Below are positions 542-63,980 of a DNA stretch of 64,000 nt, in pieces; positions within the stretch are counted from its first letter, which is position 1; each line of letters opens with the position of its first letter. The stretch is from Candidatus Sericytochromatia bacterium (GTDB lineage Bacteria; Cyanobacteriota; Sericytochromatia; S15B-MN24; VGJW01), in assembly GCA_035285865.1 (NCBI GenBank), contig JAYKHS010000011.1, positions 96,001-160,000 of the forward strand, written 5' to 3'. Below the pieces are notes generated by a model, which worked only from the letters and a program-made list of their open reading frames with translations, was not told the origin of the DNA and made no database searches. The position numbers and the translations under genes are program-made.

Positions 542-543
542 AC

Positions 544-2544
544 ATGGCTTCGGTCACGGTAGCCGCCAGATCCGCACATTCGGGCGGTCACCTGAAGTGG
601 TGGTTGGCAGCCGGTCTCGTCGGTGCCGACATCGGCACTTCCGTCTTCTACTCGACGGGCATTCTCCTGCCCCACGTCGGCTTCGCTGCCCCGCTTTTCA
701 TCCTGCTGGTCGTCATCAGCATGTGGCTGTTCAAAGCCACTTACCAGGAGGGCTGCAGCGTCAATCCGGTCAATGGCGGCGCCTACGCCATGGTCCTCGG
801 CTCGATCGGGAGAAGGGCTGCACTGGGGATCGGTTCGCTCACCCTGCTGTCCTACCTTGCCACGGCCGTGGTCAGTGCACTTTCCGGGGCCTACTACCTC
901 GGCTCACTTTGGGGCCATCACCCCTCCAAGCTCTTCGTGGTGCTGGTGGCCGCCTTGCCCGTAATCTTCTTCGGCCTGCTCAATCTGGTGGGCCTGAGGG
1001 AATCCACCCGGGTCGTGCTGGTCATCTCGGCCTTTCATTTCCTGATGTTGCTGGCCATGGACGCGTGGGGCATCGGCATGCTCGTGACGCAAGGCCTCGA
1101 CTGGCAGCGTTTCATCGACGGTGCAGCAGGCTTCCCGGGCCTCTCCGACCTGGCGCCGATGGGCATCATGCTGGGATTTGCCGGAGCGTTCCTCGGCATC
1201 ACGGGTTTCGAGTCGGCCGCCCAGATCGTCGAGGAGCTCGAGCGGCCCATCCACGAGGCCGTACGCAAGGTCTACGTGACCATCGTGGCCCTCGTCAGCA
1301 TCACCTCGCCCCTATCGGCCTTCCTCGCCCTCGCACTGGTGCCCACGGATCGGGTGGCCGGTGGCAAGGAGTTCCTGATGTCCGAGTTAGCGCGGGTCCA
1401 GGGCGGACAAACCCTGGTCCTGCTGCTGGTCATCAATGCCATGCTGACGCTGTTCGCTGCGGTCAACACCGCCTATGCAGGGGCAACCGGACTGATGACG
1501 ACCATGGCACAGCAGGGCAACCTGCCCGACATCGTCGGGCGACGCTGGACGGATCGCCACCCGGCACTGAAGGGTTATCCCTATGTGGCCTTGCCGTTCA
1601 TGGCCATCAGCCTCCTGATGCTGCTGGCCTTCCCCGGCCAGGTGGAGACCTTGGGCGACATCTACGGACTGGCCTTCCTGGGCGTGATGATCTCCTACTG
1701 CGCCGGCGTGGTGCTCACGCGCCTGAACTACCCCAACAAAATCGCCAAGTCTCCGTACCTGAATCGCTGGACTGTCGTCATCGGCGGCCGCACGCTGCCT
1801 TTGGCTCCTATCGTCGGCGGGGCCCTGCTGCTGGTGGCCGAGGTCGTCCTGATCGTGACGAAGAGCGAGGCAAGAAATCTGGGCAGTCAAATCCTGCTTG
1901 GCACCATGCTGATCATGGCCTTGTATCGTCTCGGCAAGGTCGAGGTCCGCATGGTCCAGCTGCCGGACCTGCGGCTGGGCATGGGGCAGCTGCATCAGGC
2001 GAAGGATCTCCCTGCGGATTTGCCACGCATCGCCATCTGCATCTCGGATACCGAACCGATGAGGCTGGTCAACCTGCTCACCTACCTGCTGCATCGTCAC
2101 GCCGAAGACCGAGCGATCGAACTCGTCATGTTCCACGCCCAGACGGCCGACGAGCCCGCAACCGTCTATGAGGCGCTCGAGCGCTTCATCTCGCAACATC
2201 TCGAGGAGTTCGATCTTTTCAACAACTTCGTGTTCGTCCTGACGGCCAAAGTTCTGCCAGGGAATCTGATCGAGGTGTTGCCCGAGTACCTGAAGAGTCA
2301 GCCCGAGGGGTCCTTTGAGGTCGTTTACATCGGCACCGGCAAGGACGCAACTTCCAGCGAGACGCTTCGTGAACACCTCTCCGGCGAAGTCGCCATCGTC
2401 GTCGAACGCATCGACGAGGCCAAGGTCCCGACGGGACCGGGCATCTGGTTCACGCAATGGTCCAAGGACCGAGCAAACTGGGGGCGGTTTCGCGGCACGG
2501 GTGACCTCGGTGCCCAGGGCTTCGACCCGGACAGGAGTTCCTGA
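544..2544 (+). CDS. APC-superfamily permease with cytoplasmic C-terminal domain (KimA-like candidate K+ transporter)
   Basis: About 12 hydrophobic segments; GADIGTSVFY, NGGAY and TGFESAA APC motifs; starts 2 nt after the trkA stop. Confidence 0.8.
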   Translation: MASVTVAARSAHSGGHLKWWLAAGLVGADIGTSVFYSTGILLPHVGFAAPLFILLVVISMWLFKATYQEGCSVNPVNGGAYAMVLGSIGRRAALGIGSLTLLSYLATAVVSALSGAYYLGSLWGHHPSKLFVVLVAALPVIFFGLLNLVGLRESTRVVLVISAFHFLMLLAMDAWGIGMLVTQGLDWQRFIDGAAGFPGLSDLAPMGIMLGFAGAFLGITGFESAAQIVEELERPIHEAVRKVYVTIVALVSITSPLSAFLALALVPTDRVAGGKEFLMSELARVQGGQTLVLLLVINAMLTLFAAVNTAYAGATGLMTTMAQQGNLPDIVGRRWTDRHPALKGYPYVALPFMAISLLMLLAFPGQVETLGDIYGLAFLGVMISYCAGVVLTRLNYPNKIAKSPYLNRWTVVIGGRTLPLAPIVGGALLLVAEVVLIVTKSEARNLGSQILLGTMLIMALYRLGKVEVRMVQLPDLRLGMGQLHQAKDLPADLPRIAICISDTEPMRLVNLLTYLLHRHAEDRAIELVMFHAQTADEPATVYEALERFISQHLEEFDLFNNFVFVLTAKVLPGNLIEVLPEYLKSQPEGSFEVVYIGTGKDATSSETLREHLSGEVAIVVERIDEAKVPTGPGIWFTQWSKDRANWGRFRGTGDLGAQGFDPDRSS

Positions 2545-2574
2545 CAGCTGTCCGGGTGCCAGCAAACAGACGAG

Positions 2575-2603
2575 GAAGCCCCCGCAAGACTTGCGGGGGC
2601 TTC
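2575..2603. terminator. Inverted repeat between convergent genes, probable bidirectional terminator
   Basis: GAAGCCCCCGCAAG-A-CTTGCGGGGGCTTC, perfect 14-bp inverted repeat. Confidence 0.75.
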
Positions 2604-2627
2604 AAGTGCACGCGGGCGCAACGAGGC

Positions 2628-3125
2628 CTAGTGGTGGCCGCCGTGTCCCTCGTGCTTGGCGCCGTCGCCGTGATGCTCGGCATGGCCCTCGTGATGATCG
2701 TGATGGGTGGCCTTCACGATAGCTTCGAACGCCCCATGAACGTGGTCAAGCGCTGCGATCATCTCTTTGTCACCCTTCTTGGAGGCCGCCTCGAGATCCT
2801 TCACGGACTTCACCAGATCTCCGCAGGCCTTGACACACTGCTCCTCGGTCATCTTGCATGCTGCCACCTCGGCAGCATGCTTCTGGAGGGCCGGGATGGC
2901 CGCACGGATGGCCTTGAGGTCCTTCTTCGGCAGGGCGTCATGGAACACGGGGTGAAGCACGTCATGGAAGGCCTCGAGTGCCTTGGCCATCGGCTCAGCG
3001 TGTCCGGCATCATGTGCCGCGTGGGCAGCATCCTTGGTGGCGTGCTCGTGGCCGTTGGCCCAGGCAGCGGGACTGGTCACCAGTCCGAGAACCGTCGCAG
3101 CGAACAACATGCGGCTGAGCTTCAT
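2628..3125 (-). CDS. Secreted His-rich helical protein, putative metal-binding
   Basis: AGGAG before ATG 3125; signal peptide ending AWA; HDVLHPVFH, CVKAC and a His-rich tail. Confidence 0.75.
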   Translation of the reverse strand: MKLSRMLFAATVLGLVTSPAAWANGHEHATKDAAHAAHDAGHAEPMAKALEAFHDVLHPVFHDALPKKDLKAIRAAIPALQKHAAEVAACKMTEEQCVKACGDLVKSVKDLEAASKKGDKEMIAALDHVHGAFEAIVKATHHDHHEGHAEHHGDGAKHEGHGGHH

Positions 3126-3254
3126 GGATCGTCTCCTGCAGGATGGAAGCGTGTGCGGGCTCCGCAGCTGTATCGCGACGGACCCGAGGTCATGGTACAC
3201 CCGTCCGCCGCCGCGTGGCCGTGTTAGGATGACGCCAGTGGAGGTGCCATCCGC

Positions 3255-3506
3255 ATGCAAGCCCGTCGCTCGTCCTCTCCTTCCGTCGTACCGGACGTCG
3301 GTGCAGGCTCAGCCCGTCGCCAGCAACCGGTCGAATACAAGGTTCTCGCAGAGCTGCCCGAGCCCCTGGAAGCCGGCCTCAATTCGCTTGGTGATGAAGG
3401 TTGGCAACTGGTGGCCACGGTACCTGCCTTCATCTTCCGGCGTCCGAAGATCGAAGATGGCGACGGCCTGCGGGCTCGGGTCGGTTTCGCAGCCCCAAGG
3501 GACTGA
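3255..3506 (+). CDS. DUF4177-like small protein
   Basis: EYKV...LNSLGDEGWQLVA...FRRP pattern; GGAGGTG SD; TGnTAGGAT extended -10 near 3222-3230. Confidence 0.7.
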   Translation: MQARRSSSPSVVPDVGAGSARRQQPVEYKVLAELPEPLEAGLNSLGDEGWQLVATVPAFIFRRPKIEDGDGLRARVGFAAPRD

Positions 3507-3517
3507 GCCTCCCCGCC

Positions 3518-4120
3518 ATGGCTGAAGGGCCCCGCGAGACTCGGCCTCTGGGTACTTCCGGTCCGGCCGGCGGCGATGCTTGGGTATCGTCCCGCGGCGG
3601 GCGTTCCACCGAGCGTCGTTTGTCGTCGACAGGTGGCGAACGGCTGCGGAATGAGCTGGTGGCTGCGCTTGAAGAGGCCGTTGACGAGGCCTCGGAGGTC
3701 ATTGCGCGCTACGACCGCGGCGTCGGGATTCTGGGATCGCTGGAGCTGGAGGGAGCCAGCGCACGGGAACGCAGCATCGCGCTGCATCAGTTCGAGGAAG
3801 CCATTCGCCTCCGTGACGAAGCGCGGTCCCTGTTGACGAGGATGGACAGCCTTTCACCTGTCGAAGCACTCGATGCCCTTGATCGCTGCCCTCCCGCTCG
3901 CCTGCTGGGTGCCCTGCATCCCTTGCACGGTTTCCACGACCACTTCTTCACCATCGCCGGATGCGCAGGCCTGTTCCCTCCACCTCGACCCGGGGAAGGG
4001 GGAGGCATCGGCACGCGACGCCTGCGGGCGGCGCTACAGCCCGCAGGCTCTGCCGAGCCTGCCGATTCACACCCCCCTCCGGGCATCTGGGCCCGCCTTC
4101 GTCGCTGGCTCGGGGGTTGA
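3518..4120 (+). CDS. Hypothetical protein
   Basis: ATG 11 nt after the DUF4177-like stop; helical core; ends GIWARLRRWLGG. Confidence 0.5.
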   Translation: MAEGPRETRPLGTSGPAGGDAWVSSRGGRSTERRLSSTGGERLRNELVAALEEAVDEASEVIARYDRGVGILGSLELEGASARERSIALHQFEEAIRLRDEARSLLTRMDSLSPVEALDALDRCPPARLLGALHPLHGFHDHFFTIAGCAGLFPPPRPGEGGGIGTRRLRAALQPAGSAEPADSHPPPGIWARLRRWLGG

Positions 4121-47168: not shown

Positions 47169-50100
47169 TCAGTCCCCGGCGACCAGAGCAGCTCCCGGTA
47201 CCGGTGTGGCCACGGAATTCTCGGCGACTACAGTCGCCCTTCGGCCTCGGCCGAGGAGCCTGCCGGTACCTCCCTTGAGGTCGTCCAGCAAAGTGTAGAA
47301 GACGGGCACGACGAGCAAGGTCAGGAACGTCGAAGTGACCAGACCACCAATGACCACCACCGCCATCGGCGAACGGAACTCGGAACCGGCACCGAGGCCA
47401 AGCGCCATCGGGAGCATGCCAAGCACCATCGCGGCCGTGGTCATGAGGATGGGCCGCAACCGAACCTTGGCTGCCTCGATGACGGCATCCGTGCGCGTGC
47501 TCCCCCGCTCCCTCATGGTCAGCGTGAAATCGATGATCAAGATGGCGTTCTTCGTGACGATGCCCATCAGCATGATGATGCCGATGAGCGCCATCATGCC
47601 GAGATCCTTGCCGAAGACCAGAAGACCGAGAAACGCCCCGATGATCGAAAGCGGCAAAGAGATCATGATGGTCAGCGGGTGCAGGAACGATCCGAACTGC
47701 AAGGCCAGGATGAAGTAGATCAGGATGATGCCCATCAGGATGGCTTGGCCGAATCCCGAGAAGGAATCCTGCTGCTGCTTGGCCTGACCGTCCATGTCGG
47801 CAACTACGGTCGGCGGCAGCTCGAGCTTCGGCAGCAACTCGTTGCGAATCAGATCCGTCGCGGTGCCGACCGTCGTGCCGGGGACCAGATTGGCCGTCAC
47901 GTGGACCAGCCGCTGACGATTCTTGTGCTCGATCTGCGAGAATCCGCCACCGAAGGTGACCTCGGCAAGGCTGGACAACGGCACCGCCCCGCGCGGGGTC
48001 GTGACGGAGAGATTGCGAATCCCGTCGAGGTCCCTGCGGTAACGATCCGAGAGGCGCACCCACACATCCACCTCATTCGGACCAAACGTGATGGTGCTCG
48101 GCGTCTCGCCACTGGTCGCCAGACGCAGCGTGAGCGCCAATTGGGACGCCGTGACGCCGTACTGGGCCATGCGCTCGCGATCGGGCACGAGGCGAATCTC
48201 GGGCTTCTCGTCCCCGAGGGAGGACTCGAGATCCGCGAAGATGGTCTTGTCGGCCATCAGCGCCACGAGCCTTGAAGAGTACTGACGCAGCTCCTCGAGG
48301 TTGTCACCCTGAAGCTGGACGTCCACGGGCTTGTTGTTGCCGGGCACCAGGCTGAACTCATCGGCAAGAACCTTGTAGCCCGCCGTGCCCGCGAACTCCT
48401 CACGCACCCGCTTCGCCAGCTGGGCATCGGAGATGGACCGCTCCTCCTTGGGCACCATCAGGATGGACAAGCGGGCATCGTCGACGGTGCCGTAGTTGCC
48501 GATGGTCGTCAGCACGTGCGCCACCTCGGGATGTGCTTTGACCTTTGACGCCACGGAATTCGCCACGCGGGTGGTTTCCGCGAGCGGAGACCCCTTGGGC
48601 AACTGGACGCGTAGCAGGAACTCGCCGCGATCGGCGTTGGTCAGGAAGGTCTTCTGGATGAACTGCGTCAGGCTCAGGCCCCCGAAGAAGGTCACGCCGG
48701 CCAGAACCAGCACCAGACCGCGATGTTCGAGGCCCCAGCGGAGCATGTGTCCATAGCTGCGCTCCATGGAGCTCTCCCCTCCATGAATGCTCTGGTCCTT
48801 GGGCGCCACTTTGAGCAGGTACGCCGACATCATGGGTGTAAGGGTCCGTGCGATCAGGAGGGAGAAGGCCACGGCAAAGGTCACCGTCAGGCCGAAGCTC
48901 TGGAAAAACCTCCCGATGAAGCCGGACATGAACGACATCGGCAGGAAGACACCGATGATCGTCATGGTGGTCGCCGTGACGGCCAGCTGGATCTCCCCCG
49001 TCGCGTTGATCGCGGCGCGGATCGGCTCTTCCCCGAGCTCCATGTGGCGGTAGATGTTCTCGAGATCGACAACCGCATCGTCGACGAGAATGCCTACGAC
49101 GAGCGACAGGGCCAGGGTCGTCAGGTTGTTGAAGGTGAAGCCCATCAGGTACATCGGGATGAACGCGGCGATGATCGACAGCGGGATGGCCAGCCCGCTG
49201 ATCAGCATGGCTGGCACGTTGCGCAGGAACACGTAGAGCACCAGCACCGCCAGGACCGCACCGATGGCCAGGTGCTCCCAGACGGCCGCATTCGACATCT
49301 TCACGAACTTCGTCGTGTCCTGGGCCTTGGTGATCGTCAGGCCTTTGGGCAACGTGTCGCGAAGGGCGGCCATGCGGGTATCGAGGGCACCCACCATCTC
49401 GACGGCGTTGGCATCCGTCTGCTTGGTCACGGAGAGGATGACGGCCTGGGCACCGTCCACGGAGGCATAAGTCGTCCGATCCTTGCTGGTCTGCCGGACC
49501 GAGCCGAGGTCACGAAGCCGGACCTGCCCGCCCGCAGGCGTATTGACCACCATCCCGGACAGGTCTTCGACATCGGCGAACTTGCCCATCGTCCGAATGT
49601 TGTATTGACGCGGAGACCCCTCCACGACGCCTCCGGGCAAGTTGTAGTTCTCGGCCTGGATGGTCTGGAAGACGCCCGGCAGCGACAGACCATAGGCCTG
49701 CAGGCGCTCCGGCTCGAGCGCCACCTCGACGGCCGGTTCGACGTTGCCCGAGAGCAGGATCTGGGCCACGCCCGGCACCTGCTCGAGGCGCGGCTTGAGC
49801 GTGTCCTTGACCCAGGTGGACAGGGCCATGTCGGACATGCCGGGAGCCGAAACTGCATAGCTGACAATCGGCGTCGAACTGAAAGAGAAGGTCGAGAAGC
49901 TGGGGGGCTTCGCATCCTTGGGCAACTTGTACTGGACGGCGGAAATCTTGTCGCGAATGTCCGAGGCCGCCTCTTTCGAGGAGGTCCCCAGCTTGAGCGT
50001 CACGATGACGGTCGAGAGGCCGTCCTTGGATTGTGAGGACAGCGTATCGAGCCCATTGATGCCGCCCACTGCGTCCTCGATGGGCTTGGTCACCAACGTC

Positions 50101-50330
50101 TCGACCTCGGACGGAGCCGCACCGGGGTAGACGGTGTTGACGACGACGACGGGGAATTCGATGTTCGGGAAGAGCTCCAGAGGCATCTTCATGAACGAAG
50201 CAAGGCCACCGATGACAAGCATCACCATCAGGATGATCGTGGTGACAGGATTCCTGATGAAGAACGTGGAGAAGTTGAAGCCGGTCGGCTCTTCTCCGAC
50301 ACGGTCGCCTTGCTGGTCGCTCATCGACAT
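47169..50330 (-). CDS. RND efflux transporter permease (AcrB/HAE1-like)
   Basis: 1053 aa; GILVDDAVV, KNAILI and RLRPILMT proton-relay motifs. Confidence 0.95.
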   Translation of the reverse strand: MSMSDQQGDRVGEEPTGFNFSTFFIRNPVTTIILMVMLVIGGLASFMKMPLELFPNIEFPVVVVNTVYPGAAPSEVETLVTKPIEDAVGGINGLDTLSSQSKDGLSTVIVTLKLGTSSKEAASDIRDKISAVQYKLPKDAKPPSFSTFSFSSTPIVSYAVSAPGMSDMALSTWVKDTLKPRLEQVPGVAQILLSGNVEPAVEVALEPERLQAYGLSLPGVFQTIQAENYNLPGGVVEGSPRQYNIRTMGKFADVEDLSGMVVNTPAGGQVRLRDLGSVRQTSKDRTTYASVDGAQAVILSVTKQTDANAVEMVGALDTRMAALRDTLPKGLTITKAQDTTKFVKMSNAAVWEHLAIGAVLAVLVLYVFLRNVPAMLISGLAIPLSIIAAFIPMYLMGFTFNNLTTLALSLVVGILVDDAVVDLENIYRHMELGEEPIRAAINATGEIQLAVTATTMTIIGVFLPMSFMSGFIGRFFQSFGLTVTFAVAFSLLIARTLTPMMSAYLLKVAPKDQSIHGGESSMERSYGHMLRWGLEHRGLVLVLAGVTFFGGLSLTQFIQKTFLTNADRGEFLLRVQLPKGSPLAETTRVANSVASKVKAHPEVAHVLTTIGNYGTVDDARLSILMVPKEERSISDAQLAKRVREEFAGTAGYKVLADEFSLVPGNNKPVDVQLQGDNLEELRQYSSRLVALMADKTIFADLESSLGDEKPEIRLVPDRERMAQYGVTASQLALTLRLATSGETPSTITFGPNEVDVWVRLSDRYRRDLDGIRNLSVTTPRGAVPLSSLAEVTFGGGFSQIEHKNRQRLVHVTANLVPGTTVGTATDLIRNELLPKLELPPTVVADMDGQAKQQQDSFSGFGQAILMGIILIYFILALQFGSFLHPLTIMISLPLSIIGAFLGLLVFGKDLGMMALIGIIMLMGIVTKNAILIIDFTLTMRERGSTRTDAVIEAAKVRLRPILMTTAAMVLGMLPMALGLGAGSEFRSPMAVVVIGGLVTSTFLTLLVVPVFYTLLDDLKGGTGRLLGRGRRATVVAENSVATPVPGAALVAGD

Positions 50331-50333
50331 GCT

Positions 50334-51416
50334 CTACCCTCCGGCCTTGATCGTCAGGGAGTCACCATCCTTGACGAAGGCTGCCCCGTCCGCGACCACC
50401 CTTGCCCCTCGAGCGAGGCCCGAAAGCACCTCGACCCGCGCAGCTTCACGAAGGCCGGTGCGCACGGGCGTGCGGACCGCCCGGCTGCCATCGGCAACAT
50501 AGACCACCTGTTCCGCGCCGTCGGTCTGCACGGCCGACGTCGGGACGACCAGACCCTGATGCGTGCCCGCCGCGAGTACACCCACGACGTTCATGCCGAC
50601 CCGCAGACGCCCGGTGCGTTCCAGCGCGACCTTGGCGGAGATGAGCCGTGATTGCGGATCGACGACCTGGGCAATGTCCAGGATCCTGCCCCGGAAGACC
50701 TCGCCGGGCAGGGCCACGGAGGTTACGGTCACGGGCGCCCCCTCGCGCACCAGAGCAAGGTCGCGCTCCGAGAAGGCGAGTTTCGCCTGGAAACCGTCTG
50801 CCCGAGCGAGCGTGAAGAGTGGCGTGGAAGGGCCGGCCATCGCACCGACCTCCACCTGACGCTGGAGCACGATGCCCTCGATGGGGCTGGTGACGACGGC
50901 ATTCGCCTGCGTTGTCTCGAGCAGGCGGATGGAAGCCCGCGCCTGCCGAACCTGACTGTCGTTGAGCCGGACGCTGCCCTCGGCAGAGCGCAGCTGCTGG
51001 TCGCTGGCGACGTCCTGCTCCCGCAGCTCCTTGACCCGTCGCAGGTTGTCGCGAGCCAGCTCCAGGTTGGCCTCGGCCGCAGCAAGGGCACTGCGTCCCT
51101 GCTGCAACTGCCAGGCCATTTCCGGAACATCAAGGCGGGCAAGGACCTGACCCTTCCGCACGCGCGCACCCTCTTCCGCCCCCAGATCGAGCACGCGACC
51201 GGAGGACTTGGGGATGATGGTGACCTGCGCCTTGGGGATGACCGTGCCGGACAACTCCAGACGTCGGGACATCTGCTCGGTGCGGGCCGCCTCAACGGTC
51301 ACCGCGACGGGTTTGCGCACGGAAGAGGTCGCCTTGGACGCCGGAGCAGCCCCCTTCTGGCAAGCGACCAACACCGTCGCGCACAGGGCAAGGGAAGCGA
51401 TGGCCACGAGTCTCAC
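50334..51416 (-). CDS. RND periplasmic adaptor (MFP), lipoprotein
   Basis: Lipobox LVAC; EEGARVRKGQVLARLD, SPIEGIV, VEVLSGL. Confidence 0.93.
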   Translation of the reverse strand: MRLVAIASLALCATVLVACQKGAAPASKATSSVRKPVAVTVEAARTEQMSRRLELSGTVIPKAQVTIIPKSSGRVLDLGAEEGARVRKGQVLARLDVPEMAWQLQQGRSALAAAEANLELARDNLRRVKELREQDVASDQQLRSAEGSVRLNDSQVRQARASIRLLETTQANAVVTSPIEGIVLQRQVEVGAMAGPSTPLFTLARADGFQAKLAFSERDLALVREGAPVTVTSVALPGEVFRGRILDIAQVVDPQSRLISAKVALERTGRLRVGMNVVGVLAAGTHQGLVVPTSAVQTDGAEQVVYVADGSRAVRTPVRTGLREAARVEVLSGLARGARVVADGAAFVKDGDSLTIKAGG

Positions 51417-52885
51417 GGGCGTCCTCCGGTCGAAGCAAGGCCGACGCCCGTCGCCACGAAAGCAACCGGGTCGAGGCCCAAGGATTGAGCGAGACGCAAC
51501 TCGGCCGCGAGCGCGTCGTAATGAGCCTGGACGGAGCCGGTCCGCGCCTGGGTCAAGGCCGTCTGGGCGTCAATGACCTCATAACCGGTCCCGACGCCCG
51601 CCTTGAAGCGCACGTCGGACAGACGCTGTGCCTCAGCCGCCACGGCCAGCCCCGATTTCGCGATGCGCACCCTGTCGCGAGCCTCCTGACGACCCAGCCA
51701 GGCCGCCGTGATGTCCGTCGACAGTGCACGCCGCAACTGCGTGAGCTGCAGGTCCGTCTGCACCAGATCAAGGCGACCGGAGGCCACCTTGGAGGCGTTG
51801 CGCCCCCAGTCGACCAGCGGCACTTGAAGAGACGCCGAGACATTGAGCGACCGCCCGGTTGCCAGGCCCAGCTGCGTGTAACTGGCCGAGCCGATAACCT
51901 TGGGATACACGCTGGTCTCGGCGAGCGTGAGGTTGGCTTCGTCCATCCGGCGCTTGGCCATCAGCGTCTGGATTTCGGAGCGAAGCTCGACTGCCGGACC
52001 CAGATCCCGACCAGGCTCGAACGCAACTTGCGGCAAGACAGGCTGGGCCTCCAACGGACGCTGACCAAGCGGCTCACCCAGCGCGGTGCCCAGTGCCAGA
52101 CGCGCCAGCTCGAGACCACCCGAGGCGGCACGAAGCTGGCCCTCCACGGTAGCCAGACGACTCTGGGCCTGCAGAACCTCGAATCGGGTTCCCGTCCCGG
52201 CCCGGAACCTGCGCTCTGCGGATTCGACGTGGCTCTGGGCCTGACGCTGAGCCTGCACCGCGACCTCGAGGAGAGAGGATGCCCTGAGAACCTGCAGGAA
52301 ACCGTTTGCCGCATCATATCCGGCCTTGCGCAACTGGGCACGACGGTCCTCTTCGCCCATGGCTACGGAAGCCTCGGCAAGGCGGAGGCCCGCACTCGTC
52401 TGGAAACCGTCGAAGAGTACCTGACTGACGTTGAGTCCCGAGGTCATCAGCATGAACGGAGCGTCGGTCACTGCACCGAAACCGCCCAACCCGCCGAGTC
52501 CTCCAAGGCCACCCATGCCGAGTCCCCCACCCAGACCACCGGCCCCCACGCCGCCCTGCGCTCCACCCGGACCGCCGAGGCCGCCAGCCCCGCCGAATCC
52601 GAAACCGCCCAACCCTATGGCATTGCTGTCCACCTGCTTGAACATGAGGCCGGATGCGTTGGCACTGATTTGAGGATAAAGCCCCGCATAGGTCTGGGTG
52701 ATCAGCTCCCGGGCCTGAGCCACCTTGGCATCGGCGACAGCGACGGAGAGCGCACGGGCACGCGCGGAGGCCACAGCCTCCGCCAGCGTCAGCGGGGCGG
52801 ACGCCGGAGCGGACACCTCGGCACGAACCTCGGCGGCACCAAAGAGCACCAGCAAGCTAGCCAGCAAGGATGCCTGACGCGTCAT
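51413..52885 (-). CDS. TolC-family outer membrane factor with Gly-rich insertion
   Basis: LTLAEAV, YPQIS, QVLFDG, RFRAGTGTRFEVLQAQ, RFKAGVGTGYEVIDAQ. Confidence 0.9.
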   Translation of the reverse strand: MTRQASLLASLLVLFGAAEVRAEVSAPASAPLTLAEAVASARARALSVAVADAKVAQARELITQTYAGLYPQISANASGLMFKQVDSNAIGLGGFGFGGAGGLGGPGGAQGGVGAGGLGGGLGMGGLGGLGGLGGFGAVTDAPFMLMTSGLNVSQVLFDGFQTSAGLRLAEASVAMGEEDRRAQLRKAGYDAANGFLQVLRASSLLEVAVQAQRQAQSHVESAERRFRAGTGTRFEVLQAQSRLATVEGQLRAASGGLELARLALGTALGEPLGQRPLEAQPVLPQVAFEPGRDLGPAVELRSEIQTLMAKRRMDEANLTLAETSVYPKVIGSASYTQLGLATGRSLNVSASLQVPLVDWGRNASKVASGRLDLVQTDLQLTQLRRALSTDITAAWLGRQEARDRVRIAKSGLAVAAEAQRLSDVRFKAGVGTGYEVIDAQTALTQARTGSVQAHYDALAAELRLAQSLGLDPVAFVATGVGLASTGGRP

Positions 52886-56806: not shown

Positions 56807-58189
56807 ATGTTGCGATGGCGGCCCGTCCTCTCGCTCATGCTGCTTGGTTGCGGTGCCACGGGCTGGACCGCTCCAACGGCGATCCCGGCGGCTGATCCAC
56901 CGGTCATGGTGGTCCTCGGCCCGCAGGGCGCACACGTGACGATGGTACGGCGTCTCGCCTTTCCGGAAGGCCAGACCCATGCCGTGCTCGGTGGCCTGCC
57001 GCCGGGCCTCGAAGGCGGCAGCCTGTCCCTCGAAGGAGTACCCGACCTTGCCGAGATGCGCGTCCGTCCGCACGCCGGGGACACGGCGAGCCTCGTGGCC
57101 GATGCCCACGGCAGCGAAGTCCTCGTGGAAACTCATCCAGGGGCCTCGCCCCGACCCGTTCGAATCGGCGGCCATCCGGAGCGTCCGCTCTACAAGATGG
57201 GAGAGGTCTGGTACGCGGAACTCCCGGGGAAGCTGGCATTGCCGTCTCTTCCGGCCGCAGCCGAGGGTACGCGGATCGACATTGGGCGCAAGGGCGGTGC
57301 GCCCCCTTGGCAGGGTCTTGCGACACTTCGCTTTCTCGATGGCCGGAGCCACTGGCGTTCGGACACCCGCATCGTGCTTGATGCCACGGCGCGCCGGGCC
57401 GACCTCGAGAACTGGGCGCTCGTGCAGTGGGCTGCCGGCGGGTACGGCAACAGCGTAGGCCTCGACCTCGTCGTCCAGCCTCTTCGTCAGGGTCCCGGAT
57501 GGGAGCTGCGGAGCCTCGCGGCCGACGCCATGGCACCCGCCCTGCAGGCGGAATCCGGCCTCTGGCGCTGGCGAGCGCCCGGTCCGGTTGACTCGGGAAG
57601 GAGCGGCCTTGTCCGCCTCCTATTGAGTACCAGAAGCGGTGTACCAGCGCGACTGGAGCAGGTATTCAGGCTCTCCGTGCCGTGGAATCCGTGGCAGGAT
57701 GACACCCCGCATCGCGCAGAAACCGAATTGAAGTTGGGCACGGATGGGGGAACAGGCCTGAACTGTCCCCCAGGACGCTGGCAGGTCAGTCGTCGGGACG
57801 CCACAGGCCGCCCCATGCCCGTGGCACAAGGCCAGTCATCAGGTGCGCCCGTGGATGCCCGGCTCAGCCTGGGACTCGGTCAATCCCTCGACACCCTGGC
57901 AAGGCTGGTCCAGAAGCGCTGCACCGACGACGAGAAGGGTTACAGGCAGGTCGCCCTCGAGGTGCGATTGACCCACGCAGGCAACGAACCGGCTACGGTT
58001 CACCTCTCGCTGCGGCCGGATGCGCCATGGAGGTGGCTCGCGGGCACGCCGTCGCCCGACCTGACCGGAACGACGGAACTGGCGTGGACGTTGACCATGC
58101 CTCCCGGCAGCACGCGGTCGATCGAGGTGGAGATGACGCGCGTTGCCTCCGTCAGCCGTGTCGCCGAACCGGGACCCGGACCACAGTAA
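56807..58189 (+). CDS. DUF4139/DUF4140-like lipoprotein (divergent)
   Basis: GGAGG SD; lipobox LLGC; ADLENWALV, PPGRWQV, LAWTLTMPPG. Confidence 0.6.
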   Translation: MLRWRPVLSLMLLGCGATGWTAPTAIPAADPPVMVVLGPQGAHVTMVRRLAFPEGQTHAVLGGLPPGLEGGSLSLEGVPDLAEMRVRPHAGDTASLVADAHGSEVLVETHPGASPRPVRIGGHPERPLYKMGEVWYAELPGKLALPSLPAAAEGTRIDIGRKGGAPPWQGLATLRFLDGRSHWRSDTRIVLDATARRADLENWALVQWAAGGYGNSVGLDLVVQPLRQGPGWELRSLAADAMAPALQAESGLWRWRAPGPVDSGRSGLVRLLLSTRSGVPARLEQVFRLSVPWNPWQDDTPHRAETELKLGTDGGTGLNCPPGRWQVSRRDATGRPMPVAQGQSSGAPVDARLSLGLGQSLDTLARLVQKRCTDDEKGYRQVALEVRLTHAGNEPATVHLSLRPDAPWRWLAGTPSPDLTGTTELAWTLTMPPGSTRSIEVEMTRVASVSRVAEPGPGPQ

Positions 58190-58628
58190 TGCCGGAACGC
58201 GCGAATTTCAGGCGCAGACGCAGGAATTCGCCAGCACGCAAAGGGTGAACAGGGCCCATGAGCATCAGATGCAAGCCGTCCGGACTCAGCCTTACGGAAT
58301 CTCGTGCGGGTATCCTGAGGCCGTCGACGGGGTTCATCAAGGCCCCTCCCCGGGGGCCTCGTCCTGCTGCGTGCACCCGCACCGCACGCACGCCCTCGGC
58401 CGACGCAGAGATCAACCGATCGGGCGCTCCGGAGCCCGTGATGCGCCCGTAGGCAGCAAGCACCTCGACTCCGGGCGGAGATTCGGCAATCCAGAGATCG
58501 ACGCGAGGCCGAGCGACCGGGTCGGCACGTCCCGTGCCATCGGCAGATACCGACGCATCGACCGCCCACCCTGGGACCAGGCCGCCGAGAAAGAGGCACA
58601 GGCCAAGGCTGGAGATCAAGGTGCGCAC
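58152..58628 (-). CDS. Periplasmic copper chaperone PCu(A)C
   Basis: H-x11-M-x21-H-x-M motif (VRVH...LM...GLHLMLMG); signal peptide. Confidence 0.88.
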   Translation of the reverse strand: MRTLISSLGLCLFLGGLVPGWAVDASVSADGTGRADPVARPRVDLWIAESPPGVEVLAAYGRITGSGAPDRLISASAEGVRAVRVHAAGRGPRGGALMNPVDGLRIPARDSVRLSPDGLHLMLMGPVHPLRAGEFLRLRLKFARSGITVVRVPVRRHG

Positions 58629-58637
58629 GTGTACATG

Positions 58638-59207
58638 CTACCCGCCGAGGGCCCGCGCGAGTTCGCCGCGAACGAAAGGCGGGGAGAGATGGCCCCGCAG
58701 GCGACCCCGCGGATCAATCAGGAACACGTCAAGGGAGTGCTCGATCTCGCCGCCGCCCTCGGCTGCAGGGGCAAAGGCCGCACCGAACGCCTTGCAAACC
58801 GCTTGCAAGTCATCGGGATCCGCAATCCGGACCCCGAGAAATGCAGGATGGAAGTAGGCAACATATGAAGCGAGTTGCCGCGTCGCGTCCCGATCGGGAT
58901 CCACGGTCACCATGACAACCTGGACGCGGTCGCCTCTGTTCCCGAGAGCGCGCACCTCCCTCGCAAGGTCCGAGAGTGCCGTCGGACAGGCCGTGGGGCA
59001 CCCGCGGTAGCCGAAGTAGACGAGTCCCCACCTGCCGGCCAATCGCTCCCACGTGAACGGACGGCCATCCGAAGCCGCCATCGCGACATCGGGGAGTTCC
59101 GACAGCCGCACGGACCACCACGCCCCGGTGAGACCCACGGCCAGTACCGACAGCAGGGCTGCCAGCAAGGACCGGGGTCCAAACCGAAGGCGTGGTCGTC
59201 CGCGCAC
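58638..59207 (-). CDS. SCO1/SenC family copper protein
   Basis: VYFGYRGCPTACP, VTVDPDRD, IEHS...FLIDPRG; N-terminal TM anchor. Confidence 0.93.
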   Translation of the reverse strand: MRGRPRLRFGPRSLLAALLSVLAVGLTGAWWSVRLSELPDVAMAASDGRPFTWERLAGRWGLVYFGYRGCPTACPTALSDLAREVRALGNRGDRVQVVMVTVDPDRDATRQLASYVAYFHPAFLGVRIADPDDLQAVCKAFGAAFAPAAEGGGEIEHSLDVFLIDPRGRLRGHLSPPFVRGELARALGG

Positions 59208-59214
59208 GAAACGG

Positions 59215-60504
59215 CTACTTGACCAGAGTCCGGTCGATCACGGAGATGCTGCTTTCGGTAATGTTCGAGACGAATGCCCGTGTTGCCGTGAAAGCGGCCT
59301 TGTGGTGCCCGACACCCACCTCAATGACATGCAGCACCTTGAAAGACACGGAGTCGATCACCGTGACCGAGGCGTCTCCATCGCCCATGACCCATATCTG
59401 ATCCGGGCCACCGGCTTCAGGAGAAGGTACCCTGTAGACATGGACGGGCGAGGCTGGCTTTTCGTCCAGCCTGCGGCCAACCAGGACATGGGTCAGGATC
59501 TGGCCGCTCGCCAGATCGACGACAGCCACTCGGTCCGCTCCCTTGCAGGTGACAAAAGCCCTGGCCTTGTCAGCCGTCAGGACGGAATCCGTAGGGGTGG
59601 ACAGGGTCGTGGCCTTGTTGACCACCATCCGGCCTTCGGGGTCATAGACCACGATGGTGTTGCTGGTCTTGTTGCCGAATACCAACCGATCCTTGCCGCC
59701 GACCAGACCCATCTCGATGGGGCCCGGCTCGTTGCCCTCCTTCAGGATGGTCTTGTCTCCCACGGGGGTGCCATCGGCAGGGGAGAGCGCCGATACGACG
59801 ACGGCATGGTCGGGACCGCTGGGCGCCGCGACGAAGGCCTTGCCCACGGCAATGAAGCCCCCCGCACTGCCGGTTCCGACCGGAGCAAGGTCGAAGGAGG
59901 CCGTGGCAGGACTTGCGGCGAAATCCGTCACGCCCGCAACCGAGGGCCAGCGCACCCAGAAGACGCTTGCCGGCACGGCGGACTGCTGGAGAAGCGCCGT
60001 GCGATCATCCCACCACCCCACCCGGGAGCCGGGCTTGCCCTGCATCGGGATGAAGGCGACCTGATCCCGGGTCGTCGGGGACACGATCCGCATGCCTTTG
60101 GTGGCGCCATCGAGGGCAATGGCGACGCGGTGCCGAGGATCGGCCTTGGTGTAGCTGGGACTCGCCGAAACCGTGGCACCGGGTGCCCCCGGGAAGATGG
60201 CCGCGAAGTCCAGAGTCTTCAGGACGGCCTTGATTCCGGCATCCGGCAACGTGGCGTCGAATTGCGGATCGATGATCTCCAGCTTTCCTGCGGAAGGATT
60301 CGCATTGAAAACGAGGCCTTCGGCCACATCGATGCCGTGGGGCCCCTTGGCCGTAGGGATCGTGGCGATCGGCCGGAGTGCCGGTGCCCCGGATGTGGTG
60401 ACCGTATTGATCGTGGTGTTGCCGGAAGTGCCGGTAGACGGGGTGCTGCACGCTGTCAGGATGGCAGCAAGCAGAGCAGTGGAAGTATGCGAGGACTGTC
60501 GCAT
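59215..60504 (-). CDS. YncE/YVTN-like beta-propeller lipoprotein
   Basis: Lipobox LTAC; GPHGIDV, DRVAVVDL, SVTVID, FVSNITESSISVID. Confidence 0.85.
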   Translation of the reverse strand: MRQSSHTSTALLAAILTACSTPSTGTSGNTTINTVTTSGAPALRPIATIPTAKGPHGIDVAEGLVFNANPSAGKLEIIDPQFDATLPDAGIKAVLKTLDFAAIFPGAPGATVSASPSYTKADPRHRVAIALDGATKGMRIVSPTTRDQVAFIPMQGKPGSRVGWWDDRTALLQQSAVPASVFWVRWPSVAGVTDFAASPATASFDLAPVGTGSAGGFIAVGKAFVAAPSGPDHAVVVSALSPADGTPVGDKTILKEGNEPGPIEMGLVGGKDRLVFGNKTSNTIVVYDPEGRMVVNKATTLSTPTDSVLTADKARAFVTCKGADRVAVVDLASGQILTHVLVGRRLDEKPASPVHVYRVPSPEAGGPDQIWVMGDGDASVTVIDSVSFKVLHVIEVGVGHHKAAFTATRAFVSNITESSISVIDRTLVK

Positions 60505-60556
60505 GGATTAGGAACCGATGCCTCCATGTAGCCTTGTCGGAACATTCCGACGAGGC
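60502..60556 (-). promoter_or_regulatory. Structured leader: hairpin pairing the SD and AUG of the propeller gene, plus an upstream hairpin
   Basis: mRNA CAUGGA-GG-CAUCGGUU-CC-UAA-UCCAUG (60528-60502) and GCCUCGUCGGAA-UG-UUCCGACAAGGC (60556-60531). Confidence 0.6.
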
Positions 60557-60574
60557 AGGGGTGAACGCGCTGAA

Positions 60575-60922
60575 TCAGGCGTTCGCGCGGCGCGGAGGCG
60601 GAATCGGCGGCCCCGGGGCCTGTTGGCTCGGCAGGTTCCTTAAACCGACCTGGGGCAACTGGGCAGGGCGTGCTTGCCTGACAGGCACGCACGCCGACCC
60701 GGGCATCGAGGCCTCCTCAAGAACCGGGGCCTCAGTGGACAGGCCCGTACCAGGGCTACCAGACTCCTCCAGCCTGTCCGGAGAGGCGCCACGCGCCCAC
60801 GAGCAGGGATGAGCCAGGCCCTGGTGCAGGCAGACGCGGGTACAAGCGGCATCGGCGTTGCGCACGCCCAACAGGACCACCACGAGTGACAGGATGCTGA
60901 GGAAGCGCAGCAGCACCCTCAC
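60575..60922 (-). CDS. CutF/CruR-like upstream ORF (signal peptide, CxxxC, C-terminal PPPR)
   Basis: GGGAGG SD, GTG 60922; MRVLLRFLSILSLVVVLLGVRNADA-ACTRVCLHQGLAHPC...APGPPIPPPRRANA. Confidence 0.7.
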   Translation of the reverse strand: MRVLLRFLSILSLVVVLLGVRNADAACTRVCLHQGLAHPCSWARGASPDRLEESGSPGTGLSTEAPVLEEASMPGSACVPVRQARPAQLPQVGLRNLPSQQAPGPPIPPPRRANA

Positions 60923-61953
60923 GCCCCCTGCCTCCCGATCCGTACCACCGCGCGCGCGGAGCCCAAATAGCCACGTTCGGGAGCATCCTCGAAGCCGGCT
61001 TCGGCAAGGCGTGCGGCGATGCGGCGGTGGCCCTCCTCGAGGGCATACCACGGTACGAACGCAAAGGCATGATGAATCGAGTGATAGTTCAGATAGTTGA
61101 AGAATCGCGCCATCAGGGGATGGGTCGCGACATTGCGGCAGCCGGCCCACTGGGTGTCGAAGAATGTCGGACCTGCACCCCAGAGGCCGTCGTGCTCGAT
61201 CTGGCCGCGGAACTGCATGATCGCGCCTACCACCCGTTCGAGAACGAACCACGTCAGGGCCCACGAAAGGGCCATCTCGAGGCCACGCCCACCCAGCATG
61301 TGCTCTCCGGCCCACCAAGATCCCGCGTACAAGGCCGCTTGAGTTGCCAGAATCCCCACCAAGTCGATCGCGAGCGCCGCGCGCATCTTCGGGTCCTCGT
61401 CCCGCAGGACGTAGGCGTGACGCGCCATCTCGAGAATGAGCCCGATGCCGCCCTCGAGGAACATCCGCACCCATAGGCGATGGCGCAGGCGCAGCCGCCC
61501 GAGGGGACCCGCGGCCGCCCAGTCCTCGGGAAGAGGTTCGATGCGTTCCGGATCACGCGTATCCGTACCGTTCCACTTGTGGTGGAGCAGGTGCAGACGG
61601 CCATAGGTCAGGTGAGGCCAGAAGAGGGGCCAGGACAGGACGGGCGGCAGGCCTTCGTCTATCCAGCGAATGCCGGTCAGCGTCCGATGGATGGCATCGT
61701 GCGTCAGGATCATGGCCGAGGCCACCCAGAATGCCAGCAGCATCAAGGCCACGCCCTGCAGCAAGGGCTCCCGGAGCACGGCACCCGTCGCCACGGCAAC
61801 CGCCAGGAGCACCATCACCAGGCCACGGAAGGCGATCTGGACGAGCCCGGGACCCGGACGCACGGTGGCCAGGTCCCGGACCAGAGCGGCAAGCTCGGCC
61901 ACGGGCACGGCCCGGGAGTAGGCCGGTACCTCTCGTGACGCGGCTGACTGCAT
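60919..61953 (-). CDS. Membrane fatty acid desaturase family protein
   Basis: Three His boxes HDAIH, HLLHH and HSIHH; TM segments. Confidence 0.9.
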   Translation of the reverse strand: MQSAASREVPAYSRAVPVAELAALVRDLATVRPGPGLVQIAFRGLVMVLLAVAVATGAVLREPLLQGVALMLLAFWVASAMILTHDAIHRTLTGIRWIDEGLPPVLSWPLFWPHLTYGRLHLLHHKWNGTDTRDPERIEPLPEDWAAAGPLGRLRLRHRLWVRMFLEGGIGLILEMARHAYVLRDEDPKMRAALAIDLVGILATQAALYAGSWWAGEHMLGGRGLEMALSWALTWFVLERVVGAIMQFRGQIEHDGLWGAGPTFFDTQWAGCRNVATHPLMARFFNYLNYHSIHHAFAFVPWYALEEGHRRIAARLAEAGFEDAPERGYLGSARAVVRIGRQGA

Positions 61954-62020
61954 GGTTTCATCATGCCCCGGATGGACCAAGGCTTTCAACCCCGATGACT
62001 CTGGACGAGGCCCGGAACCC

Positions 62021-62626
62021 TTGAATGAACAGGCCGTGGCGGATGCCTTCCGGGCGGGGCTTGGCATCCCGCTGGCCATGGCCTGGTCAGCGGATGCCGC
62101 ACAAGGCCCCGAATGGAAGGGTAATCCGAATGCCCACGCCAGACGCATCTCCGCGTGGAGACGCGGCCGCAAGGCCCTCGGTGAGGTCATGGGGCAACTG
62201 GGTCGCAAGGAGGACCCGACGCGCTGGGCAGCACCGGGGCCCGGTCTGTCTCTCGCGCACACCGAGGACTGGGCGGTCGCCGTCGGGCGATTGGACGGCG
62301 GTCTCGTAGGCATTGATCTGGAGAATGTGGACCGTGAGGTCTCGCTCGGAGCCCTGCTGCGCCTCGGCATCGGCCCGGAGGTTTCGGGTGCTGAAGTGGT
62401 GGTGGCGCGCCTGGTGCTCTGGACGGCACTCGAAGCCGTGCACAAGGCCAGATGCGTCGAGGGTGGCCTTATTCCCGGGCAGATCAGGCTGTTGCCCGAG
62501 GGGCCCGGGCACGGACGCGCCGAGGCTGACGGAAAGGACTACAGGTGGCTGGCGCTGCAGACCGAACGAGGCTTGGTCACAATCGCTGCCCCGATGGCTG
62601 ATTCCGTGGAACGGCCCGCCACATGA
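62021..62626 (+). CDS. 4'-phosphopantetheinyl transferase superfamily protein (start uncertain)
   Basis: SLAHTEDWAVAV, VGIDLE, WTALEAVHKA. Confidence 0.75.
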   Translation: MNEQAVADAFRAGLGIPLAMAWSADAAQGPEWKGNPNAHARRISAWRRGRKALGEVMGQLGRKEDPTRWAAPGPGLSLAHTEDWAVAVGRLDGGLVGIDLENVDREVSLGALLRLGIGPEVSGAEVVVARLVLWTALEAVHKARCVEGGLIPGQIRLLPEGPGHGRAEADGKDYRWLALQTERGLVTIAAPMADSVERPAT

Positions 62627-63083
62627 CTACGTGGGGAAGTCCGACCAGCGTGAATGAGGCGCCGTGGGCCGTCCAACCTTCCCGCAGATAGAACTCCAGA
62701 GCGGCCATCCGGGCGTTGCACCAGACCATGCTGATACCTGCCTCAGCCAGTCGGGCATCCAACTCCCCGAGCAGCATTCGGCCAATGCCACGGGAACGCC
62801 AGTCGGGGGCAACGGCCATGCCGCGCAACTGACACGGCGCACCGGGCAACTCGGGATGCGAATTGGGCACGACCGTACAGCAGCCGACCAGATTTCCTCC
62901 GTACCGGGCAACGAGGTGCAGGGCGCGCGGGTCGTCGTCCTCGCGGTAGACGCTGTCCTGCTCCGGGCGCCCGGGCCGCAGGACGGCATGGCGAAGGGGC
63001 CTTATCGTCGCAGCGTCCGTGCGCACGACCTCCACCCGATCCCGCAGGCTGAATTCCTGCTCGACTCCGGATTCGTTCGCCAT
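62577..63083 (-). CDS. GNAT family N-acetyltransferase
   Basis: LRHAVLRPG, QLRGMAVAPDWRSRGIG, WCNAR...FY. Confidence 0.9.
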   Translation of the reverse strand: MANESGVEQEFSLRDRVEVVRTDAATIRPLRHAVLRPGRPEQDSVYREDDDPRALHLVARYGGNLVGCCTVVPNSHPELPGAPCQLRGMAVAPDWRSRGIGRMLLGELDARLAEAGISMVWCNARMAALEFYLREGWTAHGASFTLVGLPHVVMWRAVPRNQPSGQRL

Positions 63084-63089
63084 GCGGAG

Positions 63090-63980
63090 TCAACCGAAGG
63101 ACGGAACCGAGGGCGTCGGCTCCACGGGGATATCCGGAGCAGGGGGCAATTCGGGAACTCCTGAAGGAGCAACGGACGGCAGTTGTCCCGGTGATGCCGA
63201 TGGTGAGGGAACGGTTTGTGGAGGACTCGCCACTCCGCCTTGCATCGGCACCGGCAGGAGGGCATCGAAGGCCGCCCTGAGCGCCTCCTGCTCCGAGCGG
63301 ATCCGCTCCAGCTCCTCCGTGACGTCCGCAAAAGTTCTCAAGGCATCCAGGGCCAAGGCATCCGCCTCGTCTTCGAGGTCCAGCGTCAGGCGGCGAAAAG
63401 CCTCCGCCGAAGCGTCATCGAGCACCTGCCCCTGGCCGAAGGTCTTCCGGAACCCGGCCGTTGCAAGGGTGGTCTCGAAGTTGACGGGCTGGTTCTCTCG
63501 ATCGAAAACCAGACTTTCAAGGACAAGCAGACGCTCGCCGACCGTCACGACGGTGCGCAATGCGACCGGCTTGGAACCTGGGGCCACGACCGTGAAAAAG
63601 CCACGAGCATCCGTGGTCTTAACGAGCGTCCGTCCATCCTGAAGCGTCACCTCCACTTCGGCTCCGGCCACCGGCAGGTCCGCCTCCTCGACTGCCTGCG
63701 CGAGCAGACGACGACCACTGCCTCGTTGCTGCAGGCTGCCCGAGCCATTGGCCACCAGGGAACCTTCGGCGTTGACGAGAATCCCTGCTCCGGACTGCTC
63801 CCGAACCCTTCTCTGGACCAGAACGCGCCCCGTCCACGCATCCACGGACACGGGCACAGGAGTGGGCGCGGAGAACGCTGCGGAATCCTGCAGAAGCACG
63901 ACCGCGCCGCTCGGCGCGCCATCCGTCCGGACGCACCCGCAGACCAGAAGCAGAAGGCACATCACCGAACAGAATCGCAC
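63090..63980 (-). CDS. Hypothetical lipoprotein with short Gly/Asn repeat and Pro-rich tail
   Basis: Lipobox-like VCGC; ILVNAEGSLVANGSGSL; PVAGAEV...TTDARGFF. Confidence 0.7.
   Translation of the reverse strand: MRFCSVMCLLLLVCGCVRTDGAPSGAVVLLQDSAAFSAPTPVPVSVDAWTGRVLVQRRVREQSGAGILVNAEGSLVANGSGSLQQRGSGRRLLAQAVEEADLPVAGAEVEVTLQDGRTLVKTTDARGFFTVVAPGSKPVALRTVVTVGERLLVLESLVFDRENQPVNFETTLATAGFRKTFGQGQVLDDASAEAFRRLTLDLEDEADALALDALRTFADVTEELERIRSEQEALRAAFDALLPVPMQGGVASPPQTVPSPSASPGQLPSVAPSGVPELPPAPDIPVEPTPSVPSFG

Follow-up and report, generated by a model that had tools for sequence, protein, structure and literature searches.

Within a 64,000-nucleotide (nt) stretch of a Candidatus Sericytochromatia bacterium genome (the window: contig JAYKHS010000011.1 of assembly GCA_035285865.1, positions 96,001 to 160,000 of the forward strand) we analysed a 115-residue open reading frame (ORF) that stands just upstream of genes for a lipoprotein beta-propeller, an SCO1/SenC copper chaperone and a PCu(A)C copper chaperone. 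This leader ORF is a real gene, and it probably encodes a copper-responsive leader peptide on which ribosomes stall, whichever way copper acts on the stall. As to direction, our tentative model is that the stalled ribosome turns the operon on and that copper releases the stall, which would leave the operon on when copper is scarce; that copper releases the pause rather than prolonging it is the least certain step, and one towards which we lean only slightly. The leader has the following parts:

60575-60922, minus strand: leader ORF (P0001), 115 amino acids (aa), GTG start, read in the sequence
Segments of the leader: signal-like residues 1-25; Cys/His residues C27-C31-H33-H38-C40; a variable linker; C-terminal GPPIPPPRRANA
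60931-60935, minus strand: leader Shine-Dalgarno (SD) sequence GGAGG, 8 nt 5' of the GTG, within the final codons of a desaturase gene
60803-60844, minus strand: candidate copper-binding segment CTRVCLHQGLAHPC, putatively a ligand site from its residues
60830-60844, minus strand: CTRVC codons, followed by H33, H38 and C40
60590-60601, minus strand: PPPR codons CCG CCT CCG CGC, the predicted stall site

The elements on which the initial annotation of this locus had built, namely the ORF with its coordinates and SD, the CTRVC and PPPR motifs, the 70-nt gap and the SCO and PCuAC genes after the propeller gene, are all present in the sequence. The leader ORF is nested in a longer 299-aa frame (60575-61474), and comparable purine-rich SD sites precede it in its congeners. 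Among the six-frame ORFs of the same genome with lengths of 60-170 aa, 17,114 in all, five have a signal-like N-terminus together with a Cxx(x)C motif and PP within their final 15 residues; the leader alone combines the signal-like start and Cxx(x)C with a PPPR end. Copies of 115 aa occur in 4/4 genomes of the genus, always between the desaturase gene and the propeller-SCO-PCuAC genes, and three congeneric copies are annotated by NCBI as 115-aa hypothetical proteins. The signal-like N-terminus, the pattern C-x-R-x-C-L-H-x3-A-H-x-C and the PPxPPPR end are kept in all four, and with them the arrangement that the initial annotation had proposed to look for at homologous loci (signal-like start, CxxxC and PPPR ahead of copper genes).

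Three co-linear genus copies showed amino-acid identities of 0.72 over residues 2-42, 0.20 over residues 43-100 and 0.60 over residues 101-115. Invariant residues make up 18 of the 41 at the N-terminus, with synonymous codon differences at 12 of the 17 degenerate ones; synonymous differences are also found at 4 of 5 invariant degenerate residues of the C-terminal end, codon position 2 is the most conserved among the genus copies, and the other two frames of the leader strand are interrupted by stops. C27, R29, C31, L32, H33, A37, H38 and C40 are invariant in five genus-type sequences. Close strains, whose variants were read from contigs of four DNA runs (the codon tally excludes five listed positions close to a pair of indels), have P at residue 28 (T28P, the genus consensus); among the changes listed, three of four at the two ends are silent, the fourth being T28P, and eight of nine in linker codons alter the residue. 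The putative signal peptide, recognized by inspection and a hydropathy filter, has a basic start, a hydrophobic core and A-D-A/A-D-S at residues 23-25, and the C-terminus reads PPIPPPRRANA, with the invariant PPPR 1-5 residues from the stop. Pfam, NCBIfam and Rfam hold no family that matched the leader protein or the leader RNA, and a protein search with the genus alignment returned the five genus-type proteins only, with no intermediates to the wider family described below.

The leader probably joins the build of CutF to the polarity of CruR. CutF of Rhodobacter capsulatus (cutFOG) is reported to be copper-induced (PMC9973294; bioRxiv 10.1101/2025.02.05.636593), and the latter account describes it as stalling on PEPEGPPPRL, as needing both the PPP and the signal, and as being relieved by elongation factor P (EF-P), with a PPP>PAP change abolishing control. 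By its described features CutF shares with the leader a length of ~115-118 aa, a Sec-type signal (putative in the leader), CxxxC and the presence of EF-P (which the window genome encodes), as well as a C-terminal PPPR (in the leader within GPPIPPPRRANA), a next gene less than 100 nt off and an SD hidden in a stem, which here is a prediction. The leader also has the properties by which CutF-like proteins have been filtered (Ozturk et al. 2023), being shorter than 150 aa with PP in the last 15 residues and a same-strand gene within 1000 nt, and, as in the CutF-like class, a Cys/His motif in its mature part (C27, C31, H33, H38 and C40 in five genus-type sequences). Unlike in CutF, where the anti-SD is in an intergenic stem-loop, the CxxxC lies at mature residues 41-45 and the next gene encodes the multicopper oxidase CutO, the leader has its anti-SD in the stall codons and its CxxxC directly after the signal, 76 residues before the PPP, and it precedes propeller, SCO and PCuAC genes; moreover, it is probably a second gene, coupled to a desaturase gene, in the lineage Sericytochromatia.

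CruR (Bp2923) of Bordetella pertussis, a DUF2946 (PF11162) protein, is described as working through Rho (PMC9426467), with its arrest shown in PMC12992588, and the neighbours listed for it include SCO, PCuAC, OprC-type receptors and MbnPH. Like CruR, the leader has an export signal, here putative, a Cys motif and a proline-rich, arrest-type end, it heads copper uptake or delivery genes, and its predicted polarity is on with the stall and off with copper. Unlike CruR, it has PPPR rather than RAPP and CxxxC rather than CxxC, it spaces CxxxC and PPP by 76 residues as opposed to 45 +/- 2, it is probably not first in its operon in the genus, where it is coupled to the desaturase gene (several other loci have divergent upstream genes), and its output is predicted to depend on SD pairing, the genus genomes having yielded no Rho over the cut-off. 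The initial annotation had seen the ORF as a divergent member of this group and had named no direction of control. What stands of that interpretation is a conserved leader-type ORF with a Cys/His motif, a PPPR end and a cis position before copper-linked genes; membership in DUF2946/CruR was rejected on the missing PF11162 match, the missing RAPP and the different spacing, the PF11162 search having identified 0/13 aligned leaders, 0/50 members of the wider family and 0/47 genomes of the class, while a control genome passed the cut-off. By language-model features the nearest named clusters are CzcI, DUF6660, DUF6769 and DUF2946 (0.93-0.94), which is a lead only; CzcI, DUF6660 and DUF6769 share 81-106 of 256 features and no Pfam match with the leader, again a lead and not kinship. 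CzcI is cited as CutF-like in PMC9973294.

The link from the stall to the next gene may lie in the RNA, in which the proline codons and the propeller SD are predicted to pair:

60599-60594, minus strand: predicted anti-SD GCCUCC, carried by the PPPR codons
60510-60614, minus strand: predicted three-way RNA junction, fold z = -4.12
60556-60531, minus strand: intergenic hairpin, a part of the predicted junction (predicted fold)
60521-60525, minus strand: propeller SD GGAGG, 16 nt 5' of the ATG, predicted to be paired while the leader tail is free

Over the 131 nt that link the proline codons with the propeller start, the predicted fold beats 200/200 shuffles (z -4.12), with the GCCUCC of the Pro codons paired to GGAGGC and extra pairs on both sides, and the predicted junction consists of this long-range leader-tail/SD helix, a stop-codon hairpin and the intergenic hairpin. 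The genus RNA consensus is a three-way junction closed by leader tail and SD, with two-sided changes at 6/24 pairs, from four sequences only. Pairing of the SD with the PPPR codons has a predicted probability of 1.00 for the window and of at least 0.74 in 8/13 loci, including 4/4 of the genus. CCT, the codon for ~13% of prolines in a rough gene set, occurs at Pro 1 or 2 in 11/13 loci vs 3.1 expected, and for 8/14 loci the tail-SD duplex lies within the 5% level set by 300 synonymous recodings (0.020 in the window); in the two loci without CCTCC the next codons pair instead, in one of them with an altered SD. The predicted geometry would give the sign of the effect, in that stalling can only help to expose the propeller SD. 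Separately, a small hairpin of differing sequence holds the start codon of the post-leader gene in the window (60487-60504) and in most loci (L031, L032, L038, L040, L042, L044, L062 and L063), and it may be a second control layer or a GC effect.

The genes around the leader are these:

59215-60504, minus strand: lipoprotein beta-propeller, 429 aa, lipobox Cys19, invariant His56, His355 and His401
58638-59207, minus strand: SCO1/SenC copper chaperone (PF02630, E 4.9e-32), CPTAC and His present
58152-58628, minus strand: PCu(A)C copper chaperone (PF04314, E 9.2e-23)
60919-61953, minus strand: gene of the fatty-acid-desaturase family, its TGA overlapping the leader GTG
61960-61989, minus strand: sigma-70-like promoter TTGAAA-18-CATGAT just 5' of the desaturase start, a consensus match only

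The leader and propeller genes are 70 nt apart, the propeller and SCO genes 7 nt and the SCO and PCuAC genes 9 nt, and no terminator-like site was found between leader and propeller. As the leader GTG overlaps the desaturase stop (GTGA) in 4/4 genus genomes, and as a scan of 57900-63200 gave a single sigma-70-like match, the one ahead of the desaturase gene (0.3 expected by chance), the desaturase gene is probably the first gene of the leader transcript in the genus and the leader the second. The desaturase itself had no NCBIfam match near the cut-off, and back to back with it (starts 61952 and 61953; region 60919-62626) lies a divergent gene resembling phosphopantetheinyl transferases (weak ACPS match, E 0.22).

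In the mechanism that we propose, Sec export would, to judge from the residue spacing, have carried C27-C40 across the membrane by the time the ribosome is at the PPP, 67-80 residues further on. The ribosome would then pause on PPPR, a pause that by analogy with CutF would normally be relieved by EF-P and the pull of the translocon. The paused ribosome is predicted to cover the anti-SD in the PPPR codons and to free the propeller SD, which would favour propeller initiation, the SCO and PCuAC genes coming next after gaps of 7-9 nt. Copper, the ligand that the gene context suggests, would be bound by the exported Cys/His segment and would release the pause, turning the operon off; the leader would act in cis, always just before copper-linked genes. 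No Rho (TIGR00767) scored over the cut-off in 4/4 genus genomes (83-98% complete), which makes an output of the CruR type through Rho unlikely here; in the order, Rho was over the cut-off in 9/27 genomes (family f3 7/10, family f4 0/8). We prefer the copper-released polarity as the downstream genes serve delivery and uptake, being of a kind headed by CruR homologues and repressed by copper: according to Roy et al. (PMC9426467), CruR homologues head a copper-repressed oprC and a starvation-induced oxidase-biogenesis operon.

Leaders of a related kind may be more widespread in Sericytochromatia, the non-photosynthetic sister class of cyanobacteria. Homologs of the propeller are present in 36/61 genomes searched, the closest (74-78% identity) coming from Ca. 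Sericytochromatia and Ca. Tanganyikabacteria records. In the order's other families, the same propeller gene is preceded by one for an outer-membrane barrel, in most cases of the Phenol_MetA_deg type and with CxxCxC following the signal. At 9/35 of the non-genus loci scanned, the barrel gene in turn is preceded by an ORF of 124-150 aa that begins like a signal peptide, is rich in Cys and ends in PPPR. A 13-row leader profile had matches in 16/47 class genomes, one copy each, and its three hits outside the training set were all directly before a barrel, one on the same contig and two across contig-end overlaps (exact, of 16 and 29 nt). Database searches for this Cys-rich family returned 24 and 39 proteins, ~50 members, and none of the 10 of 39 representatives that were looked up had an informative name, and one member bears the NCBI label 'Pantanalinema sp.'; a metagenome scan gave at least one further leader locus. 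Most members have 7-11 Cys; P23, C26, C46, C48, C65 and P126 are invariant in the 50 non-genus members, and the C-termini of 55 database members have PPPR (32), PPR (13), PP (8) or none of these (2), some distant members ending in RPP or ARPP. The PPPR is invariant in 13/13 aligned leader loci. A profile-profile comparison of the genus ORF with the family (probability 84%, E 7.6e-6, residues 4-44 only) aligned the PRPC-x8-C of the family with leader residues C31 and C40; only the genus has the first Cys of CTRVC, and it lacks the CxCxxxCxC block of the family. Together with the shared position and ending, this modest link is suggestive of homology and not firm.

Leader-bearing loci with DNA number 18 (the 13 aligned loci, L081, L106, L093 and the two joined across overlaps; three of the 18 were blind profile hits and two were found later). 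In 18/18 the leader is followed after 38-131 nt by a same-strand gene, which encodes the propeller (4), the barrel (13) or a TonB receptor (1). Copper-type markers occur at 9/18 loci: SCO and PCuAC at five, a nosD-F-L-Y cluster (394-3967) that ends 24 nt 5' of the leader on the same strand in L106, a multicopper oxidase ~4 kb from the leader in L042, an HMA-P1B ATPase with a MerR gene in L058, and an OprC-like receptor in L093. The receptor case is L093, where a leader paralogue (1486-1860, ending PPDRPPWRRG; profile match E 3.6e-6) lies 70 nt before a TonB receptor gene (1931-2647) whose best model is TIGR01778 and which has CGGRM in the plug, the receptor being under the model cut-off and cut by the contig end. 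OprC is described (PMC8610252) as having a CxxxM motif and being repressed by copper. The window genome also encodes COX1, a client for SCO and PCuAC.

Several observations weigh against this model. CutF, the one tested protein with the same ending and a Sec signal, has the opposite polarity, and the OprC-like paralogue informs polarity only indirectly, as the link between genus and family is modest. A profile built without the genus gave E-values of 2.1 for P0001 and 0.018 for P0028 and found the leader in 0/4 genus genomes, and because it gave no significant leader match we keep family-wide claims apart from those on the genus. At 9/18 loci no copper marker was seen (50/112 listed ORFs scanned; L035 and L081 left out), and barrel-propeller pairs also occur leaderless, behind TonB-HmuY-CbiX genes. 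The SD-tail pairing is weak in 5/13 loci and in three of five held-out loci (1.00, 0.60, 0.36, 0.18 and 0.05), and the pairing and codon counts are overstated, since the loci are kin; the choice of CCT could reflect a slow codon, not pairing. Masking the footprint of a stalled ribosome leaves the SD of the window just 0.20 unpaired, since an intergenic UGCCUC can take over as its partner, and saves no more than 2.1 kcal/mol of the opening cost, which then stands at 15.2 kcal/mol (fall over loci 0.1-8.6); that this cost falls in 14/14 loci is no proof by itself, as masking can only lower it. The propeller SD, moreover, is 16 nt from the ATG in the window and ~15 nt in three close-strain contigs, and 9-10 nt in the congeners.

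The strongest competitor keeps the leader and the SD release and takes the polarity of CutF: copper would prolong the pause, and the operon would come on to supply chaperones or to buffer periplasmic copper. The copper-induced CutF agrees with the leader in its ending, in CxxxC, in length (115 vs 118 aa) and in having an SD-hiding stem and a Sec-type signal (both predicted in the leader), and at L058 the leader lies beside an HMA-P1B ATPase and a MerR gene, an efflux-type context. We nevertheless judge this polarity unlikely, if well worth weighing, as the targets are of delivery or uptake types (SCO, PCuAC, the OprC-like receptor) and in none of the 18 loci is the leader directly followed by a gene for a multicopper oxidase or an exporter. 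Leaderless barrel-propeller copies, too, follow MbnP-MbnH genes (L049 and L061, and by inspection L056, L057 and L065). At L049 a response regulator gene stands just upstream of the leaderless MbnP-MbnH-barrel-propeller operon.

A stalling leader could also read another signal, such as the disulfide state of the periplasm, the capacity for secretion or of EF-P, or a metal other than copper (Zn, Co, Ni or heme iron). The 7-11 Cys of the family would suit disulfides, thioredoxin-fold genes flank barrel-propeller pairs, and genes for cytochrome bd, a copper-free oxidase, are divergent from the leader at L040 and L062. In three genomes (L037, L041 and L043) a barrel-propeller pair follows TonB receptor, HmuY and CbiX genes, a second context of the pair, of heme or cobalt type. 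CutF-like proteins, moreover, are reportedly not all copper-specific. These three pairs have no leader, however, in genomes that also carry a leader-type locus, and the metal-specific markers at leader loci are all copper ones or an HMA ATPase without an assigned metal, which leaves another signal distinctly unlikely.

We consider it improbable that the product is simply a small secreted metal-binding peptide that does its work once exported and leaves the next gene uncontrolled, the proline tail being a linker. In the genus its translation is coupled to that of the gene before it, as in any common operon, and the Cys content of the wider family is metallothionein-like; against this stand the PPPR, kept at its distance from the stop behind a linker of 20% identity, the codon choice and folding that point to SD pairing, a structured gap of 63-75 nt after the leader vs 7-9 nt between the next genes, and a structure prediction in which a Cys-rich member is largely unfolded (predicted template-modelling score 0.29, low confidence). 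That the ORF is no gene, whether a chance frame or a conserved RNA only, is very improbable: it belongs to no Pfam or NCBIfam family and GC-rich DNA yields many Pro/Arg frames, but a 115-codon frame in 4/4 genomes, silent substitutions at conserved residues, stop codons in both remaining frames of the strand and a pattern fitted by 1/17,114 ORFs speak for coding.

If copper does release the stall, the proposal can be taken further, to an unnamed Sericytochromatia family of copper-sensing arrest peptides that combines Sec export and the EF-P-type PPPR stall of CutF with the copper-off logic of CruR, dispenses with Rho, holds the anti-SD in its proline codons and controls a three-histidine copper-binding propeller and a CxxCxC barrel as an undescribed copper uptake module; in this full form we regard it as possible and rather doubtful. 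The propeller model is confident (predicted local distance difference test score 87), and Foldseek matched it to 1l0q, Lp49, NirN, NirF and YncE with E-values of ~1e-11 to 1e-12 at 9-14% identity. The strand list suggests eight blades. His56, His355, His401 and the lipobox Cys are invariant in 23/23 aligned propeller homologs, which bears out the three histidine motifs that had been flagged earlier, and by the strand list the triad lies at the inner-strand starts of three neighbouring blades, a plausible metal site. The description of this protein as YncE-like was correct as to fold class and not as to family, the Pfam match being below the cut-off (E 0.078); scores were 12.7 bits against PF21783 (cut-off 27.1) and 12.6 against NF052280 (cut-off 400), and YncE proteins have seven blades, whereas this propeller seems to have eight, falls under the cut-off of all family models and has no named family. 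The His-triad propeller and the CxxCxC barrel are two candidate copper-handling proteins without a family name.

In the genus the barrel has moved elsewhere and is present in 4/4 genomes (window genome contig C26:99498-100562, minus strand; L107 and L109-L111); in the window genome its gene comes after a TlpA-like one, where an operon identified by inspection as pilus/secretin-like ends. A relaxed scan for leaders in 33 regions at leaderless barrel-propeller loci gave seven ORFs, none a credible leader. Elsewhere in the window, TolC-like, membrane-fusion and RND-type genes at 47169-52885 (minus strand) form an efflux operon, likewise named by inspection.

The principle of stalling is already known; what is new here is the lineage, the predicted anti-SD within the stall codons and the absence of a detectable Rho. 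RAPP/RGPP leaders are described as largely absent from Cyanobacteriota (PMC12992588) and CutF-like proteins outside three phyla as minor (PMC9973294), and our literature searches listed no report of such a leader in Sericytochromatia, although members could already figure in list D of PMC9973294. CutF and CruR, the only two metal-sensing stalling leaders characterised in these sources, have opposite polarity and different outputs. With a CutF ending and targets of the CruR type, with Cys-rich and Cys-poor forms, and with hosts that contain Rho and hosts that lack it, the present leader family could reveal what sets the polarity, and copper control of this kind would extend to the phylum Cyanobacteriota through a protein family that has no name.

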